Made by a program: the position numbers and the translations under genes. DNA of 5,416 nt from a virus (Duplodnaviria; Heunggongvirae; Uroviricota; Caudoviricetes). Location: IMG/VR virus record IMGVR_UViG_2698536485_000013. One strand, given 5' to 3'. The notes under the pieces were generated by a model that was not told where the DNA came from, did no database searches, and worked only from the letters and a program-made list of their open reading frames with translations. Of this stretch, positions 1 through 5,416 are shown piece after piece (the first letter of the stretch is position 1; each line of letters opens with the position of its first letter).

Positions 1-1
1 A

Positions 2-808
2 GTCTCCAGGATTTCCGGGGCGGTTCAACAATCAATTGCAAATTATATCAGCCCAATGGCCCAGCTATGGGAGTTAGCTTCATCACGTTACCACGATGCA
101 CCAGAAAGGGCGCTCTCCTCCTGGCGAGGGCATAGGCTTGATGTGGCACAAAGTAGAGAGAGCTATGAGGCATTTTCTAACAAAGAGCTATTGCAGGTGT
201 TGCAAGTATTTTCCGGTAATTCAGCAGAAAACAAAGAAATGATAGCTTTGTGTCTTATCGGTGCTTATACAGGTATGCGGATCAATGAGATAGCAAGTCT
301 CACAATAGACGATGTGAAAGAGATCGAAGGTGTGCTGTGTTTTGAAATCACACAGGGAAAAACGAAAGCTGCGGCACGTGTTGTGCCTGTGCATAGCCTT
401 ATCACTCCATTGGTGTTATCTCTTCGTGAAAAGCCTCACAATGGCTTTTTGTTCTATCACGCCAGCATTACAGAGCGTGCTGATGGTAAACGTTCCACGT
501 GGCACACGCAGAGATTTACAAGAGCTAAACGAAAGGCTTTAGGGGAAAAGGGAACAGAAAGGAAGGTGTTTCATTCTCTGAGACACGGAGTAGCACAGCT
601 TCTTGATCGAAATCAAATTCCAGAAGACAGGATCGCCCTTCTCCTGGGCCATACACGCGGCAATACAGAAACATTCCGCACATATAGCAAGAATGCAGCT
701 TCTCCAGTAGAGCTTAAAAAATATATTGAGCTTCTACGCTACCCTGAAATAGAGAAAGGCTTATCAATCAATAAAAAATCAAATTTAAGGCGTAAAACAA
801 CGCCATAG
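2..808 (+). CDS. int: Tyrosine-type site-specific recombinase (phage-type integrase), C-terminal catalytic portion; 5'-partial, the reading frame is open to the left window edge
   Basis: The translation carries the tyrosine-recombinase catalytic signature in the right order: box I Arg (AYTGMRINEI), a Lys-containing beta-turn (TQGKTKAAARVVPV), HxLRH (FHSLRHGVAQLL), LLGH, and a C-terminal Tyr (TETFRTYSK). The frame containing ATG 56 has no stop between position 2 and 56, and 250 aa is short for this family, so the N-terminal arm/core-binding region probably lies upstream of the window. Stop is TAG at 806-808. Confidence 0.88.
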   Translation, partial: VSRISGAVQQSIANYISPMAQLWELASSRYHDAPERALSSWRGHRLDVAQSRESYEAFSNKELLQVLQVFSGNSAENKEMIALCLIGAYTGMRINEIASLTIDDVKEIEGVLCFEITQGKTKAAARVVPVHSLITPLVLSLREKPHNGFLFYHASITERADGKRSTWHTQRFTRAKRKALGEKGTERKVFHSLRHGVAQLLDRNQIPEDRIALLLGHTRGNTETFRTYSKNAASPVELKKYIELLRYPEIEKGLSINKKSNLRRKTTP

Positions 809-815
809 ACGCAAT

Positions 816-855
816 AAAGAGGCTCCAACATAGATTGGTAGCCTCTTTTATAATT
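816..855. terminator. Putative bidirectional intrinsic terminator between convergent int and the minus-strand operon
   Basis: Seen in sequence: 816-824 AAAGAGGCT pairs with 840-848 AGCCTCTTT, and the inner 825-828 CCAA pairs with 835-838 TTGG (one bulged T at 839, 6-nt loop). On the + strand it is followed by TTTTATAATT; on the - strand the A-tract at the stem base supplies the U-run. It sits 8 nt after the int stop and about 40 nt after the 237-aa gene stop. Confidence 0.5.
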
Positions 856-889
856 ACATCGTTACAGAGCGTTTTAGAGGCGTTTACGG

Positions 890-1603
890 CTATTCCTGTT
901 TAAAGGCAGGAGTAATAGTGTCTTCACCTTCACTACTTGATTTTTCAGTGTTAACACGTTTTTTCATATTAGCCCCGATGTTCTTAGATGGCTGTGTTTT
1001 GATAGCTACAGTGTTCACAGTGCCATAAGAAACTAATCTTATTTGCTCAAAGCTAAGATCAAATACCAGGGATTCGCTTGCCTCTTCTGTGTATTCGATT
1101 CCTGTTAAAACAACGTTCTCAAAAGTTTTATTTTCTGTAACAAGAAGAAAAGGCTGTCTACTGTCCATAATCTGATTCAGGTAGTCGATAGCTAATGATC
1201 TTCTGTTCCCGTTCACCCCTGCACTCTTTAACAAGCCAGGATCGCTTTTAATCGGTGTTTCAGTGATCCTTCCTTTAAGAGAAAACTTATTGTTTTTAAT
1301 TTGAACGTGATCAGACACAGTAGCACCATTTTCTACGGGGTAGCTTGTAACATCTGCCGAACGTCTCACGTTCACATCGTCAACACTATCAAAGGCCAGT
1401 GCCATATAATTTTCATAAACATCATTGCCAGAAGATGCCAAGCCACTGGTAACAATAGCAAATCCGTTCTCTCCTTTTGTTTTATTGGCTTTGCTATTTT
1501 CGTTTTTTGTAGAGTTTATATCTTGTTCTGCTTTGTAAACAGCCTGAACGTGTTGTTCTGGAGTATTTGCTGCACGTATGGTTAAAATCCCGGCGGTCGC
1601 CAT
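890..1603 (-). CDS. Hypothetical protein, 237 aa, last gene of the minus-strand operon; function unknown
   Basis: ATG at 1603-1601, with AAGGAAA about 13 nt upstream on the minus strand. Long uninterrupted ORF; the start lies 34 nt downstream of the 609-aa gene stop, same strand. The protein is rich in Ser/Thr/Asn/Val with a Lys-rich N-terminus and acidic C-terminus. No catalytic motif recognised. Confidence 0.7.
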   Translation of the reverse strand: MATAGILTIRAANTPEQHVQAVYKAEQDINSTKNENSKANKTKGENGFAIVTSGLASSGNDVYENYMALAFDSVDDVNVRRSADVTSYPVENGATVSDHVQIKNNKFSLKGRITETPIKSDPGLLKSAGVNGNRRSLAIDYLNQIMDSRQPFLLVTENKTFENVVLTGIEYTEEASESLVFDLSFEQIRLVSYGTVNTVAIKTQPSKNIGANMKKRVNTEKSSSEGEDTITPAFKQE

Positions 1604-1637
1604 AATAATAATTTTCCTTGTAATGTTATGGCGGGAA

Positions 1638-3467
1638 TTACCCGCCGTTGGATTGTCCTGATAAGCTGGTTAATGTTAATGATTTCAAGAAGCTATCCCG
1701 ACTTGCTCTCGCTGTAAAATCCACATAATCGCTTAATCTTGATGTGTCTGAATTAATAGTAAGAGGAACCTCTGTTACCACTTCAAATGTAGGATTCAGA
1801 TTAAACACAGGAGATAAATTATAAGCCGGAGTTGTCATTGCAAGATTATTTAAAGCACCCTGTTTGAGATTGGTTATCGGTGCTTCGCTGACTGACATTT
1901 TTACATCTGACACAGAAGAATTATCATCGAAAAGCAATCCCTTAATCGTGTTAAAGAGAGAATGACTATTATCAGGTGTAGTTGTTGCAGTGCCAGCGCC
2001 TTTATATTGGTCAGGAACGAGATTAGAAAGATGCTGTTTCATCCCTTCATTGCTTAATGGCGGTGCATCACCTAAATTTTTCTGAATAGCATCTGTCTTA
2101 TCATCATTACGATTAAACCAGTTTACAATCTTCATAATAGCTTCAAAGAGACTTCCTACAGCTTCTCCCAGCTTCGTAAAATACGGAGTGAGATTAGAAA
2201 GGTTTTTCAAAAACTCTTCCGTTACTTTTGGATCGAGAGATTTCATAAAGCCGTCTACGAATGCTACTTGTCTTGCATCAGAAAGCTGTGAAAGCTGTCT
2301 GTTTAGTTCTCTGAATTTAACAATAGAGTCTTGCTGTGTTTCTGTTAGCCATTTTCCAGAGGCTTTTTGCTGATTAATACTTTCTTGTACATCTTTAACG
2401 GAACGTTGCCAATATTTTGACGTAAGCATCAAATCATCGCCCAGGTCTTCTAAACGTTGTCCAATTTGGGAGTCTGAAAACCCTTTTTTCATCATTCCAT
2501 TAACAGCCTTAGAAATTAATCCAGCCGGATTATCAGCAAATTTTTTAAGGTCGCTTTTGTTAATAACACCGATGTTTAGAAGTTCATTAATAGCATTATC
2601 ACCGCCTTTCCATTCAGATTTTCCGGTTTTCTTGTCTTTCACCAATTCAGCTTCACTGTAGGATTTTGCGGCACGTTCCCTAACATCTTTCATCTGATCC
2701 AGGTATTTCCTAGCCCCTTGATCACCCATCATAGAGTCAACGCCGTTTCTATAGGCCCATTCTGTAATGTTGTACATCTGGTTAACGTCTACACCGCCAA
2801 GCCTTGCACGTTGAATTAGCTCTCCTTGTGTCTCAGCATTGGCAAAACTATTAGCCATAAATTCACCGGTTTTACTAACCGCCATCACGCCAGCAGCAGC
2901 CGTAGCGCCTCCAAATAACAGAGCGCCCATAGTGGCGGAATTCCCTGATCCTCCCTTAACGGGGGCTAATTGAACTTTTCTGTTGCCATTAATCTTACGT
3001 TGTTGTTGTTGTAAGCGTTTCATCTGGCTATTCATACGTGCAAGCGAGATAGCCCCTTGCTCATATTGTTTCGCTATCTCTCTAGCCTGTGCAATAGCTT
3101 TGTATTGTTCCGCTACAGAGAGGCGGTGCATTGCACTGATAGAGCTTGACACATCAAGGAGCTTTAATTCTGCTTTCTCTTTACGTGCTGCTATTTGTTG
3201 CTGTTGCCTTGCCTGTGCTCTTGCTGCGGCAGCTTGTGCTCTTTGATTCTGTTTTTCTGTTTTGGCTTTCTGTTGAGCAATCTTATCTACTTCGCTTTGT
3301 GCTTTCTTATAGCCTTTAGTGACATTATCAAATCTTAATTTAGCTGGCTTGATGTTTTCTGCGAATTCCTTTAAGCCTGTAATAGAGTCTTTCGCTTTTT
3401 TCAAGCTGTCTTTATCTACACTAAATGTAACTGTGTTCTTAATTTTAGAAGTGTTAATTTCTAACAT
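1638..3467 (-). CDS. Hypothetical large protein, 609 aa: N-terminal Lys/Gln/Ala-rich predicted coiled coil, a Gly/Ala-rich hydrophobic segment, then a large C-terminal domain; function unknown
   Basis: ATG at 3467-3465 preceded by AAGGGGA about 8 nt upstream; stop TAA at 1640-1638. Residues ~55-165 (nt ~2970-3300) are heptad-like and charged (AQQKAKTEKQNQRAQAAAARAQARQQQQIAARKEKAELKLL, RLQQQQRKIN). Residues ~172-200 (nt ~2868-2954) read GGSGNSATMGALLFGGATAAAGVMAV. The start lies 18 nt downstream of the 66-aa gene stop. Confidence 0.8.
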   Translation of the reverse strand: MLEINTSKIKNTVTFSVDKDSLKKAKDSITGLKEFAENIKPAKLRFDNVTKGYKKAQSEVDKIAQQKAKTEKQNQRAQAAAARAQARQQQQIAARKEKAELKLLDVSSSISAMHRLSVAEQYKAIAQAREIAKQYEQGAISLARMNSQMKRLQQQQRKINGNRKVQLAPVKGGSGNSATMGALLFGGATAAAGVMAVSKTGEFMANSFANAETQGELIQRARLGGVDVNQMYNITEWAYRNGVDSMMGDQGARKYLDQMKDVRERAAKSYSEAELVKDKKTGKSEWKGGDNAINELLNIGVINKSDLKKFADNPAGLISKAVNGMMKKGFSDSQIGQRLEDLGDDLMLTSKYWQRSVKDVQESINQQKASGKWLTETQQDSIVKFRELNRQLSQLSDARQVAFVDGFMKSLDPKVTEEFLKNLSNLTPYFTKLGEAVGSLFEAIMKIVNWFNRNDDKTDAIQKNLGDAPPLSNEGMKQHLSNLVPDQYKGAGTATTTPDNSHSLFNTIKGLLFDDNSSVSDVKMSVSEAPITNLKQGALNNLAMTTPAYNLSPVFNLNPTFEVVTEVPLTINSDTSRLSDYVDFTARASRDSFLKSLTLTSLSGQSNGG

Positions 3468-3485
3468 TTAAAATCCCCTTATTAA

Positions 3486-3686
3486 TCATTTTTTACCACC
3501 TTCTTTGCTTAAGAAATGGTGTAGAGCCTGATCAATACTCTCGTTTAGTCTGAACATACGGGCTTTTACTCCTTCATATGGAACATCTAAGAGAGAACAT
3601 AGATATTTCAGATTTAACAAGCCTCTAGAATCATTAGCATCTAAATGTACGTGTACACCATTTTTTGATTTCAGAATCACTTCCAT
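3486..3686 (-). CDS. Small hypothetical protein, 66 aa, tightly linked upstream of the 609-aa gene
   Basis: ATG at 3686-3684 with GAGAGGTGA about 7 nt upstream on the minus strand; stop 18 nt before the 609-aa gene start. Confidence is lowered by the short length and lack of recognisable motifs. Confidence 0.55.
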   Translation of the reverse strand: MEVILKSKNGVHVHLDANDSRGLLNLKYLCSLLDVPYEGVKARMFRLNESIDQALHHFLSKEGGKK

Positions 3687-3710
3687 ATTTTAATCACCTC
3701 TCAAAATTTA

Positions 3711-3755
3711 AAAATAAATAAAAAAAGGCGAAGCGTGTTATTCACGCCACGCCTC
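3711..3755 (-). terminator. Putative intrinsic (rho-independent) terminator or attenuator on the minus strand, between the 342-aa gene and the 66-aa gene
   Basis: Seen in sequence, read on the minus strand: GC-rich interrupted hairpin (3726-3730 AGGCG with 3751-3755 CGCCT; 3733-3737 GCGTG with 3743-3747 CACGC; loop TTATT), immediately followed by a T-rich run (reverse complement of 3711-3725 = TTTTTTATTTATTTT). It begins 18 nt after the 342-aa gene stop. Confidence 0.55.
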
Positions 3756-3772
3756 TATTACACGTTAAAATA

Positions 3773-4801
3773 TTATTTAACAGTGATTTGAACGGAGAAG
3801 CCAACGCCGTGGTTTACAACCATCTGGCTATTCTCTGTAACAACGTTAACAGCATCACCACGAGAAGATTCATAGCTGTAGCTATACACCTCAGCAGGAG
3901 CGGCATTGATCAGTTCAAAGGTGCTGGAAGCAGCCCCGTAGATGTTCTGATATACATTAGAGCCTTTAGCAAACTTCGGAACCGCTACAGCGTCTGCGGT
4001 CATATGTGCAAGGTGTAGCGGATCTACCAGTTTAACAACATCAATGTTAGTTCCTGGAATAGTGAACGCTGTCACCCCCGGTAGCAGGTCACGACGCTGA
4101 TACACAACGTTCCCTTCTTCCAGTGGGCTTACATACTGGAATGCGTTTGCCATACCCGCAGAGAATCGAATTGCAGAGAAGGCTTCAGGTTTACAGAACA
4201 CAACAACACGCTCAATGGTTGCAGCCTGTTTTTGTGCCTTAGCAATCATATCCGTAGCAATCTGATCAAATTCTTTAAAAATCTTCGTGGTGTCAGTGCT
4301 GGAAGCGTTCACAGTGGCTTTCATAGCTGATACGTTAAACAGCTTGCCCCATTCGATAAGAACATCATCAGTTTTAGGCGTGTAAGTTTTACCGCTAAAC
4401 AGAGATGCAGCCAGCACGCTCTCTTTTGTACGCTGATACGCTACGTGGTGTTTAGCAACATAGTCAGCATAGATATCAGTGAGTGTTTCCTGAAAATCAG
4501 TGCCAGGCTTACGCTTGCCTTGAACATCAGAAGGACGGATCACATCTTCACGAAGAAAATACGGGATTTCAATAAGCCATTCTTTACCTTGTTCTCGCTT
4601 AGTAACGTTGTGTTCAGAAGAGAAACGAGAGGTTTCTTTGTTAAAGAGAGATTCGTTGCTTTCGACAAGCTGGGAAACAGCTACTTTATGAGAACTAACG
4701 CCCACCGGATCAGTGAAGTCGAGGGTAGAGAGCAGAAAGTTACGCGTGCTGTGTGTCTGGAAAAGCGGAGCTAAATCAACGTAATCATTACCTAGAATCA
4801 T
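3773..4801 (-). CDS. Hypothetical protein, 342 aa, second gene of the minus-strand operon; function unknown (structural versus enzymatic not resolvable from sequence)
   Basis: ATG at 4801-4799 preceded by AAAGGAA about 7 nt upstream; long clean ORF, with only a 15-nt gap to the upstream gene remnant. Followed by the terminator-like hairpin. C-terminal third is rich in beta-formers (Val/Tyr/Ser/Thr). Confidence 0.8.
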   Translation of the reverse strand: MILGNDYVDLAPLFQTHSTRNFLLSTLDFTDPVGVSSHKVAVSQLVESNESLFNKETSRFSSEHNVTKREQGKEWLIEIPYFLREDVIRPSDVQGKRKPGTDFQETLTDIYADYVAKHHVAYQRTKESVLAASLFSGKTYTPKTDDVLIEWGKLFNVSAMKATVNASSTDTTKIFKEFDQIATDMIAKAQKQAATIERVVVFCKPEAFSAIRFSAGMANAFQYVSPLEEGNVVYQRRDLLPGVTAFTIPGTNIDVVKLVDPLHLAHMTADAVAVPKFAKGSNVYQNIYGAASSTFELINAAPAEVYSYSYESSRGDAVNVVTENSQMVVNHGVGFSVQITVK

Positions 4802-4816
4802 TTATTATTCCTTTTA

Positions 4817-4998
4817 TTAAGAAGTGAAAACAGAATGGAACCCTTCAAGCTGAAAGCCTTTTTTAATTAATGCTGTTTTTGCTGCTTCACTTACAGCATT
4901 CAGGGCATCAGCTTTGATGCATACAAGCCCAGCATTGCTACGTAGCACATCTACAGGCTTGTTTTCCCCAGCCGTTACAAATTCACTCAGAACAACAT
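4817..4998 (-). pseudogene. 3' remnant (~59 codons) of the operon's 5'-proximal gene, interrupted by the IS3 insertion
   Basis: The minus-strand frame is open from the IS3 junction (4999) down to TAA at 4819-4817 and continues into IS3 sequence. The only start in the ORF track (5014) lies inside the IS3 terminal repeat, so it is fortuitous. Tight 15-nt spacing and an RBS for the next gene support a real, formerly longer gene. Confidence 0.5.
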
Positions 4999-5037
4999 TG
5001 ATCTTACCCAGCAATAGTGGACACGCGGCTAAGTGAG
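4999..5037 (+). repeat. IS3 left terminal inverted repeat (IRL), approximate extent
   Basis: Established knowledge: the IS3 terminal inverted repeats are about 39 bp and begin with 5'-TG. The exact inner boundary is not verifiable here because the right end is outside the window. Confidence 0.6.
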
Positions 5038-5063
5038 TAAACTCTCAGTCAGAGGTGACTCAC

Positions 5064-5363
5064 ATGACAAAAACAGTATCAACCAGTAAAAAACCCCGTA
5101 AACAGCATTCGCCTGAATTTCGCAGTGAAGCCCTGAAGCTTGCTGAACGCATCGGTGTTACTGCCGCAGCCCGTGAACTCAGCCTGTATGAATCACAGCG
5201 CTACAACTGGCGCAGTAAACAGCAAAATCAGCAGACGTCTTCTGAACGTGAACTGGAGATGTCTACCGAGATTGCACGTCTCAAACGCCAGCTGGCAGAA
5301 CGGGATGAAGAGCTGGCTATCCTCCAAAAGGCCGCGACATACTTCGCGAAGCGCCTGAAATGA
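5064..5363 (+). CDS. insE: IS3 transposase OrfA (helix-turn-helix DNA-binding and leucine-zipper component)
   Basis: The protein MTKTVSTSKKPRKQHSPEFRSEALKLAERIGVTAAARELSLYESQ...LKRQLAERDEELAILQKAATYFAKRLK matches IS3 OrfA as I recall it. ATG at 5064 has GAGGTGA 5 nt upstream. The ORF track's start at 5055 is an in-frame GTG and is probably not the real start. Stop TGA at 5361-5363. Confidence 0.9.
   Translation: MTKTVSTSKKPRKQHSPEFRSEALKLAERIGVTAAARELSLYESQRYNWRSKQQNQQTSSERELEMSTEIARLKRQLAERDEELAILQKAATYFAKRLK
5326..5363 (+). promoter_or_regulatory. Probable programmed -1 ribosomal frameshift region of IS3 (A-AAG slippery motif near the orfA 3' end, upstream of the orfA/orfB overlap)
   Basis: Seen in sequence: CAA AAG at 5325-5330 in the orfA frame, followed by GC-rich sequence and the ATGA overlap. 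Established knowledge: IS3-family elements make the OrfAB transposase by -1 frameshifting. The exact slip site is assigned from memory and is not verified. Confidence 0.4.
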
Positions 5364-5416
5364 AGTATGTCTTTATTGAAAAACATCAAGCTGAGTTCAG
5401 CATCAAAGCAATGTGC
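5360..5416 (+). CDS. insF: IS3 transposase OrfB (DDE catalytic component), first 19 codons only; 3'-partial at the window edge
   Basis: ATG at 5360-5362 overlaps the orfA stop (ATGA) in the -1 frame and encodes MKYVFIEKHQAEFSIKAMC, the recognisable N-terminus of IS3 OrfB. Confidence 0.85.
   Translation, partial: MKYVFIEKHQAEFSIKAMC

Follow-up and report, generated by a model that had tools for sequence, protein, structure and literature searches.

A thrW-inserted element of Escherichia coli with its own capsid, tape measure and tube-initiator genes: a probable satellite of phi92-like virulent myoviruses

Introduction

The cos site of satellite P4 matches that of P2, and the P2 terminase therefore packages P4. 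In SaPIbov5-type satellites, Ccm, a homologue of the capsid protein, redirects the size of the helper capsid. The Vibrio cholerae PLEs are satellites of the virulent myovirus ICP1 and encode their own tape measure, tail assembly chaperone and baseplate hub; their chimeric tails exclude the ICP1 tape measure and are ~10 nm shorter (PMC12987554). Putative tape measure genes in other satellites, including some cf-PICIs, are mentioned in a figure legend of the same work (PMC12987554, Extended Data Fig. 10). The cf-PICIs are reported to encode all proteins to make and fill small capsids and to steal only tails (10.1101/2022.09.08.507074). For the EPIPs of Mycolicibacterium, a major capsid protein and a tape measure are both reported to be satellite-encoded (PMC12822802). 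Here we describe an integrative element of Escherichia coli, of which a stretch of 5,416 nt (IMG/VR record IMGVR_UViG_2698536485_000013; the window in what follows, meaning this whole stretch) carries a leftward operon encoding a predicted capsid protein, tape measure and tail-tube initiator. The window contains the late virion-morphogenesis operon of an element of 12.0-13.4 kb residing at the 3′ end of thrW, and we consider it probable that the family of this element is a phage satellite parasitising virulent myoviruses of the phi92 type (Stephanstirmvirinae).

No prior description of the element was found in the literature searched (open-access papers and bioRxiv). Its individual genes are not novel. 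The element and its proposed lifestyle appear to constitute a novel phage-satellite family and not a categorically new entity.

Results

Virion proteins encoded by the leftward operon

The chromosome of E. coli 13E0725 matches the window at 100% identity; the locus of the window's own strain is referred to as L001. The island of strain E423 (L002), which is not interrupted by any insertion sequence (IS), was used as the reference for the intact gene order. Four intact open reading frames (ORFs) are present on the minus strand of the window (Table 1). The gaps between them, and between the last of them and a truncated 5′-proximal gene, are 34, 18, 86 and 15 nt, and each start codon is preceded by a purine-rich motif resembling a Shine-Dalgarno sequence (AAGGAA, AAGGGGA, GAGAGGTGA and AAGGAA). 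Re-reading of the coordinates and sequence thus bears out the arrangement given in an earlier, sequence-only reading of this DNA, including its truncated gene, which is p120, cut by IS3 at 4998. All four ORFs are annotated in RefSeq, two of them already named by the NCBI pipeline. They are intact in other strains (intact copies of the element are carried, for instance, by 89-3156, NZ_CP027366, and Res13-Lact-PEB08-01, NZ_CP062865), and the pairwise ratio of nonsynonymous to synonymous substitution rates (dN/dS) against other E. coli copies is 0.01-0.19 across the four. These are thus real genes.

By its sequence, the 342-aa product is an HK97-fold major capsid protein. Its match to Pfam Phage_cap_E (PF03864) is full length, covering residues 23-341 (5.7e-14; 52.3 bits against a cut-off of 22.9), and it also matches the major head protein family phrog_29. 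With a profile of 19 members of the capsid family, the top match in PDB was gp124 of phi92 (3.3e-18), to which the protein aligns end to end at 22% pairwise identity. In phi92, gp124 and the cement protein gp123 make up a head of T=13 (PMC13450770). The top Foldseek matches of the AlphaFold2 (AF2) model were all HK97-fold capsids of myophages (PhiTE, ICP1, Sf14 and Bas63), with E down to 9e-9; the model is of low confidence (pLDDT 57) and was taken as supporting evidence only. Homologues of the capsid protein comprise 53 cluster representatives from Enterobacterales (Escherichia, Citrobacter, Klebsiella, Enterobacter, Cronobacter, Dryocola, Sodalis and Serratia) that are 37-98% identical, and nearly all of the full-length ones are 341-348 aa long.

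A distant relative of the capsid protein (352 aa, 29% identity) was seen at 3478-4536 of IMGVR_UViG_2869437394_000005 (L051). At this locus two genes of ~110 aa lie upstream of the capsid gene and two small genes downstream, followed by an integrase gene, with no tape measure gene. It may represent a sister family of capsid-only islands.

The 609-aa product is identified by sequence homology as a tape measure protein of Stephanstirmvirinae-type myoviruses. It matches phrog_16051 (8.8e-54) and the chain of phi92 gp134 in PDB (21vq_V, 1.8e-37), and in BLASTP it is collinear with gp134 from residue 1 to the C-terminus, including the baseplate-hub segment at that end. In tblastn it retrieved 134 Stephanstirmvirinae-type phage records, mostly Justusliebigvirus and Phapecoctavirus. 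The cryo-electron microscopy structure of phi92 has shown that the tape measure gp134 is a trimer whose C-terminal end is housed in the baseplate, residues 631-656 being located in the baseplate interior, and that gp135 is the hexameric tube initiator (PMC13450770). Compared with gp134, the element protein is a mosaic. Identity is 69% over residues 1-45, 41% over residues 251-350 and 39% over residues 561-609, with 16-30% in the rest, and the N-terminus retains 85% identity at the DNA level over 87 nt. The best-conserved parts thus include both termini; by analogy with phi92, the C-terminus is taken as the part contacting helper structures. At 609 aa against the 659 aa of gp134, the protein is 50 aa shorter, which as a rule-of-thumb estimate would amount to about two tube rings. 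The tape measure gene (dN/dS 0.07-0.15) is placed directly upstream of the tube-initiator gene, the same order as gp134-gp135 in phi92. The tape measure of the Klebsiella element is 40-42% identical to those of Phapecoctavirus, including that of Klebsiella phage ZCKP1.

Homology likewise identifies the 237-aa product as a myophage tail-tube initiator. It matches Pfam Dit_like (PF21821; 3.4e-29, 101.9 bits, cut-off 24.2) and is 60% identical to phi92 gp135 over 205 aa. Its PDB matches are gp135 itself (21vq_N, 2.1e-78) and other solved tube initiators, namely 9cuy_K, designated 'tube initiator' (2.7e-13), and gp17 of Pam3 (1.4e-6). The dN/dS of this gene is 0.01-0.19. In the phage collection, the matches of the tape measure and the closest matches of the tube initiator are Stephanstirmvirinae-type phages of ~130-153 kb, such as the virulent phi92; the tube-initiator family overall extends to a wider range of phages.

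The sequence-only reading had regarded these genes as uncharacterised, with no recognised function, and had proposed an undescribed cargo system. Three of the four proteins are identified by profile and BLAST searches, and the cargo proposal is contradicted by their homology to virion proteins and finds no match in PADLOC. Among the three roles that it had listed, the one as a module for virion structure or morphogenesis, belonging to a small integrative element, was correct. Homology to a known phage head or tail module, which in its view would make the locus not novel, is found for the individual genes; the element itself appears new.

Anatomy of the intact element

The element is bounded by a 20-nt direct repeat (ATGGTGCCGATAATAGGAGT) that is the 3′ end of the tRNA-Thr gene thrW, and its size in three copies is 12.0, 12.6 and 13.4 kb. 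In L002, attL is followed by the gene of an intact integrase of 425 aa and by the leftward operon, consisting of tube initiator, tape measure, s65, capsid, p120 and p70. After a gap comes the early operon (p112, p136, p92, a 229-aa winged helix-turn-helix (wHTH) protein, p55 and p62), then an ORF-poor stretch of ~2.6 kb (L002 26003-28614), a few small genes and attR. The element thus possesses an integrase and att sites of its own, as a satellite would; in the window copy the integrase is split by an IS. The 229-aa wHTH protein resembles replication initiators (phrog_270, 2.6e-9). Iteron-like repeats, 3.4 perfect tandem units of 22 bp (TGACCTACCCCCTAGCTCACTA; L002 27241-27315), are found inside the ORF-poor stretch together with a copy of the phi92 terminal-repeat boundary, and short AT-rich repeats of 10 bp follow immediately after this copy.

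No gene for a terminase, portal, protease, sheath, tube or fibre was detected, either with Pfam and PHROG among the annotated genes of the intact copy or by tblastn of all ORFs against phi92. Homologues of capsid, tape measure and tube initiator were the only virion genes found in the scans of this copy. The virion and packaging set is incomplete and the element hence non-autonomous, a property of satellites. An autonomous mini-phage was considered and rejected because terminase, portal and tail tube/sheath genes are missing. When ten element proteins were compared with PADLOC-DB 2.0, 0 families were obtained at E <= 0.01, and NCBIfam and Rfam scans gave no informative matches.

The interval from the early operon to p70 contains a sigma-70 promoter close to the consensus (TTGACA and TAATAT spaced by 17 nt, with an extended TG). 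A leader of ~200 nt comes next, and then the strongest intrinsic terminator of the element. The whole arrangement (minus strand, L002 23679-23444) is placed directly upstream of the p70-p120-capsid operon, and its equivalent in L001 lies ~1.7 kb past the right end of the window. The promoter and the terminator hairpin recur in elements of five other genera, where the leaders are 300-560 nt long, and the consensus fold of four leaders, a small sample, contains some compensatory pairs. The layout resembles that of lambda pR′/tR′, and this analogy suggests that the late operon may be controlled by antitermination or by the leader RNA.

In strain E423, a P22-like prophage occupies the same thrW site in tandem next to the island (L002 30543-40985). 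It carries gtrABC, a tailspike, ejection proteins and its own integrase, and a second copy of the 20-nt att core separates it from the island.

A site shared with phi92-like phages

The phi92 genome was assembled from three loci and compared with the element by BLAST. In addition to matches in coding DNA, an exact match of 40 nt was found (ATCGGGGGGCGCTGAAAATCGCGTTAAGCACCTCTCGCAA, composed of ATCGGGGGGCGCTGAAAATCGCGTTA and AGCACCTCTCGCAA on the two sides of a boundary). The site is present in L002 and in L001 at 29893-29932, ~6.5 kb past the right end of the window. In phi92 it corresponds to nt 318-357, and the 343-bp direct terminal repeat, as annotated, has its right end within this stretch (...CGCGTTA/AGCACC...). 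It is unique in the phi92 genome and occurs once per concatemer junction. The site is kept in 54 phi92-like phage records, at position 318-357 in the records that start at the repeat. A second box, TTGATATTTG, is also shared, and its spacing is 19 nt in phi92 as well as in the E. coli elements; apart from this box, the sequence around the 40-nt site is unrelated. In the Klebsiella element a diverged copy of the site is found at the syntenic position, with a TTGATATTT box at a similar position upstream. At the sequence level, the element thus shares a packaging/cleavage site with its putative helper, and we infer that the 40-nt site acts as a packaging site.

A homologue of phi92 gp086, which is small and has a predicted signal peptide, is encoded by the Klebsiella (L004 2768-2971, minus strand) and Serratia (L007 2932-3123, minus strand) elements and not by those of E. 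coli (63-67 aa, 37-48% identity); it is a further gene common to the element and the putative helper lineage. A phi92-type site or a tape measure like that of the element family was also seen in records of ~146-151 kb labelled 'Campylobacter phage' with C. jejuni as host (MG065639, MG065645, MG065650, MG065656 and MG065689). The host labels of these records look doubtful.

Distribution and conservation

The site region is carried by 423 of 5426 complete E. coli genomes (about 8%), always as a single chromosomal copy. Gene context was drawn from the encoding contigs, GTDB genomes and IMG/VR. Synteny of p120-capsid-small protein-tape measure extends over at least seven genera (Escherichia, Klebsiella, Serratia, Buttiauxella, Kluyvera, Scandinavium and Citrobacter), so that the genes co-occur as the sequence-only reading had proposed to check, and the block (p70)-p120-capsid-small protein-tape measure adjoins the integrase in every locus covering the region. 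A tube-initiator gene is carried by the two E. coli types, by Buttiauxella (L014) and by a further five IMG/VR loci that are unassigned (L039-L043) and whose capsids are 63-64% identical. Replication modules are swapped between elements, the place being taken by the 229-aa wHTH protein, a 274-aa protein or a Walker-A protein of 485-497 aa. The integration site also varies and is either tRNA-Thr or tRNA-Gly.

An E. coli-type island with the exact phi92-type site was found on a 9.4 kb contig (JAEWTL010000083.1, L017) of a metagenome-assembled genome labelled 'Bacillota bacterium'. This is probably a mis-binned enterobacterial contig.

Small proteins, signals and insertion sequences of the window

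Table 1. Features of the window, with positions counted from its first nucleotide.
Feature	Position	Strand	Basis
HK97-fold major capsid protein, 342 aa (by sequence)	3773..4801	-	Pfam Phage_cap_E, phrog_29, PDB profile match to phi92 gp124
Tape measure protein, 609 aa, phi92 gp134 homologue	1638..3467	-	phrog_16051; BLASTP; PDB 21vq_V
Tail-tube initiator (Dit-like baseplate protein), 237 aa, phi92 gp135 homologue	890..1603	-	Pfam Dit_like; gp135 identity; PDB
Conserved 62-67 aa protein (s65/s66), 66 aa here, directly upstream of tape measure gene	3486..3686	-	Synteny; AF2; weak helix-turn-helix Pfam matches
p120 3′ remnant (about 60 codons of a ~120-aa gene), truncated by IS3	4817..4998	-	Translation matches C-terminus of the 120-aa protein of L002
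Intrinsic-terminator-like hairpin with T-run, in the 86-nt gap after the capsid gene	3720..3754	-	Sequence AGGCGTGGCGTGAATAACACGCTTCGCCTTTTTTT
Hairpin flanked by T/A runs, between the convergent genes of integrase and tube initiator	816..849	.	Read from sequence AAAGAGGCTCC...GGTAGCCTCTTTT
Tyrosine integrase C-terminal fragment, pseudogene	26..808	+	Pfam Phage_integrase 1.1e-17; RefSeq 'incomplete, missing N-terminus'
IS3 left end (orfA/InsE-like 5055-5363)	4999..5416	+	Pfam HTH_Tnp_1; RefSeq IS3-like element

A protein of the 66-aa type is found at the same position in the aligned elements of Escherichia, Klebsiella, Serratia, Buttiauxella and Scandinavium, and tblastn places it there in the Kluyvera and Citrobacter loci as well. 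Its dN/dS is <=0.06. The AF2 model (pLDDT 75.8) consists of a beta-hairpin and three helices; it gave no significant fold match with Foldseek in PDB and BFVD, and the protein itself has no family match in Pfam, PHROG, PADLOC or NCBIfam. Weak helix-turn-helix Pfam matches occur among members of the family, and the protein is possibly a small helix-turn-helix DNA-binding protein. A relationship to phi92 gp133 was rejected, as the two have no similarity.

The gene that the sequence-only reading took as the first of the operon, and had wished to see intact, encodes the 120-aa p120 in L002. It precedes the capsid gene in every locus covering the region, a position that in phi92 is held by the cement protein gene gp123. 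Kinship with gp123, suggested by the shared gene position, was not borne out by BLASTP (E=1.0) or hhalign (probability 1%). The p120 profile has no PDB match, and a homologue search with the truncated fragment returned only truncated E. coli proteins.

The hairpin that follows the capsid gene has a counterpart in L002, where a matching terminator site is called at 21732-21716. From its sequence and position, it is probably an attenuator setting the ratio of capsid to downstream products. The hairpin between the convergent genes is likely to be a bidirectional terminator.

GC content is 0.32-0.49. The operon had been placed between an integrase and an IS3 in the sequence-only reading. The IS3 is present, but of the integrase the window has the C-terminal part alone, since just left of the window the gene is split by another element of the IS3 family; RefSeq annotates an IS3-family transposase and a DUF6538 fragment upstream, so that the N-terminal DUF6538/SAM-like part is separated by this insertion. 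At the other end, similarity to uninterrupted copies stops at 4998, which puts the start of IS3 at about 4999, inside p120, and separates the operon of the window from its promoter. The window copy is disabled because its integrase and p120 are each interrupted by IS elements; the four ORFs are nonetheless intact.

IS3-family elements are located in differing island genes depending on the strain: integrase and p120 in the window strain, integrase in PT62 and tape measure in 1919D3 (window 1-25 and 4999-5416; L001 16760-17973; L021 166-1328; L022 3489-4651). These varied insertions suggest recurrent inactivation or a target preference for the AT-rich island. In strain E423 the tape measure gene is frameshifted (L002 19616-21453), and the adjoining capsid, small-protein and tube-initiator genes are intact.

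Comparison with described satellites

The element resembles the PLEs in being a small integrative island that would exploit a large virulent myovirus. Here too, the gene of a tape measure homologue is accompanied by those of a small protein, upstream of it, and of a component of the inner baseplate, and the predicted tape measure is shorter than that of the putative helper. The hosts and helpers differ, Vibrio and ICP1 in one case and Enterobacterales and Stephanstirmvirinae in the other. PLEs re-size the ICP1 coat with the external scaffold TcaP, whereas the element here has its own HK97 capsid gene, and the inner-baseplate partner is the hub in PLEs and the tube initiator here. No relatedness to PLE genes surfaced in the profile searches, with no direct comparison with PLE sequences having been made.

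A capsid gene of HK97 fold, from a lineage distinct from that of the helper, is shared with the cf-PICIs. However, of the set that characterises these (capsid, portal, protease, head-tail connectors and terminase small subunit) the capsid alone was detected, no portal, protease, connector or terminase subunit being detectable, and the helpers of cf-PICIs are temperate. A lone capsid homologue with neither portal nor protease, hence dependent on the head assembly of the helper, is the situation of Ccm in SaPIbov5, and by this analogy the element recalls SaPIbov5 more than the cf-PICIs. SaPIbov5 differs in its Gram-positive host, in its temperate siphovirus helper, in a Ccm that is closer to the helper capsid and in having no tail module.

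Like P4, the element is an integrative element of ~11-13 kb in E. coli that carries a packaging/cleavage site of its putative helper. In contrast to it, P4 has no capsid or tail genes, uses Sid and Psu and depends on a temperate helper, and the site here is a terminal-repeat boundary and not a cos. The element belongs neither to the classical PICIs nor to the P4-like satellites: no Pfam, PHROG or NCBIfam match was found in its proteins to alpA, primase-rep, TerS, Ppi or Rpp of PICIs or to Sid, Psu, Delta or the alpha primase of P4. The EPIPs are similar in that major capsid and tape measure are both satellite-encoded, but they also carry a small terminase, head-tail adaptors, a scaffold and a serine integrase (PMC12822802). 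They are, moreover, actinobacterial, extracellular and prophage-inducing, and their sequence context is unrelated.

Discussion

The case for a satellite of phi92-like phages starts from observations on protein identities, element anatomy, conservation, selection and the identity of the shared site. The size of the element, its integrase and replicon, the absence of most virion genes, the synteny under selection and the copy of a virulent phage's genome-end cleavage site together argue for it. In its full form, the proposal is that of an undescribed satellite family that is spread over Enterobacterales, about 8% of the complete genomes of E. coli included, and is the first known on virulent Stephanstirmvirinae (phi92-like and Phapecoctavirus-type). 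Within 13 kb it would combine three hijacking strategies, namely a capsid of its own, chimeric tails of the PLE kind for which it supplies tape measure and tube initiator, and mimicry of the helper's terminal-repeat cleavage site, and its late operon would be gated by a promoter, leader and terminator like those of lambda pR′/tR′. The evidence leans, by a little, in favour of this fuller form.

The following course of events is envisaged. On infection by the helper, the island would be excised by its own integrase and replicated from the iteron origin with its own initiator. The late operon would then be switched on through read-through of the terminator behind the strong promoter. The capsid protein of the island would build, or re-size, a shell for the ~13 kb genome with portal, scaffold and protease of the helper. 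Its tape measure and tube initiator would take the place of those of the helper in helper-built contractile tails, giving rise to chimeric tails. Finally, the helper terminase would cut and package the island at its copy of the terminal-repeat boundary site.

Several findings weigh against a satellite of phi92-like phages. Induction, capsid size, chimeric tails, packaging and transfer are inferred from sequence. The capsid protein is only 22% identical to that of the helper and no portal, protease or scaffold is recognisable, which leaves nucleation on helper parts unexplained. The left boundary of the phi92 terminal repeat has no match in the element, the right boundary alone being mimicked. 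The link to a helper site is weak outside Escherichia: the site region of the Klebsiella element gave one marginal match among the phages, near the end of phage FKP3 (E=0.02), and the variant site of locus L030 gave no phage match. The 44-nt junction of an excised attP is absent from the metagenome and viral contig collections, and all IMG/VR matches are integrated copies. A scan of viral contigs for the site returned phages and contigs of 14-76 kb, at least nine of them known to contain the integrated element, and no free genome of ~13 kb. The Klebsiella, Kluyvera, Citrobacter and Serratia variants lack the tube initiator, which is thus accessory. Many copies also carry IS insertions or frameshifts.

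An alternative is that the island is an anti-phage locus acting by assembly poisoning. Its capsid, tape measure and tube initiator would be dominant-negative decoys and its site a terminase trap, so that infection by phi92-like phages is aborted with no transfer of the island in particles. A tape measure with helper-like termini and a diverged core, and a tube initiator 60% identical to that of the helper, would suit such decoys, and no packaged or excised forms were found in the contig collections. Satellite interference with tape-measure-dependent tail assembly is also documented, for Rta of PLE11 (PMC12987554). However, no PADLOC model is matched, and the integrase, att sites, replicon and uniform size of 12-13.4 kb across genera fit mobilisation better than a static defence locus. 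We regard this alternative as unlikely. It is also more a sub-function than a true alternative, because known satellites combine interference with transfer; defence through decoy structural proteins may be part of the biology of the island.

Somewhat less likely still is the reading that a temperate phage, itself related to the phi92-like phages, is in decay here and that a few of its structural genes were left by chance. An integrase at a tRNA site next to phage structural genes, the frequent IS3 insertions and the frameshifted tape measure of E423 could all be read in this way. On the other hand, this minimal set of genes is met again, at the same size, in elements of at least seven genera, purifying selection acts on each of the four genes, and in the phage collection the tape measure matches and the closest tube-initiator matches belong to the large Stephanstirmvirinae-type phages, for example virulent phi92. 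The 40 nt of perfect identity within otherwise unrelated DNA points to a selected site and not to random leftovers. Finally, non-virion cargo (a factor for defence, secretion or the cell surface) for which an integrative element is just the carrier is very improbable, since three of the four intact proteins are assigned to the virion with confidence and no defence-system model is matched, even if p120 and the 66-aa protein are left with no assigned function.

If the element is indeed a satellite of phi92-like phages, about one in twelve E. coli strains carries a parasite of these phages, which are large, virulent and widely isolated for therapy and biocontrol, and are popular therapy candidates. 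During phage treatment, such islands could cut the phage yield, change the composition of the tails and pass from one strain or genus to another. The building of chimeric tails by satellites, shown until now only for Vibrio PLEs, would be extended to Enterobacterales, and a satellite pairing a lone capsid gene with tail-core genes would be added to those described. The recurring clusters annotated as 'major capsid protein / phage baseplate protein / hypothetical' beside thrW, which prophage finders call fragments, would be accounted for. E. coli K-12 together with the BASEL phages would then provide a tractable system for satellites of virulent phages.

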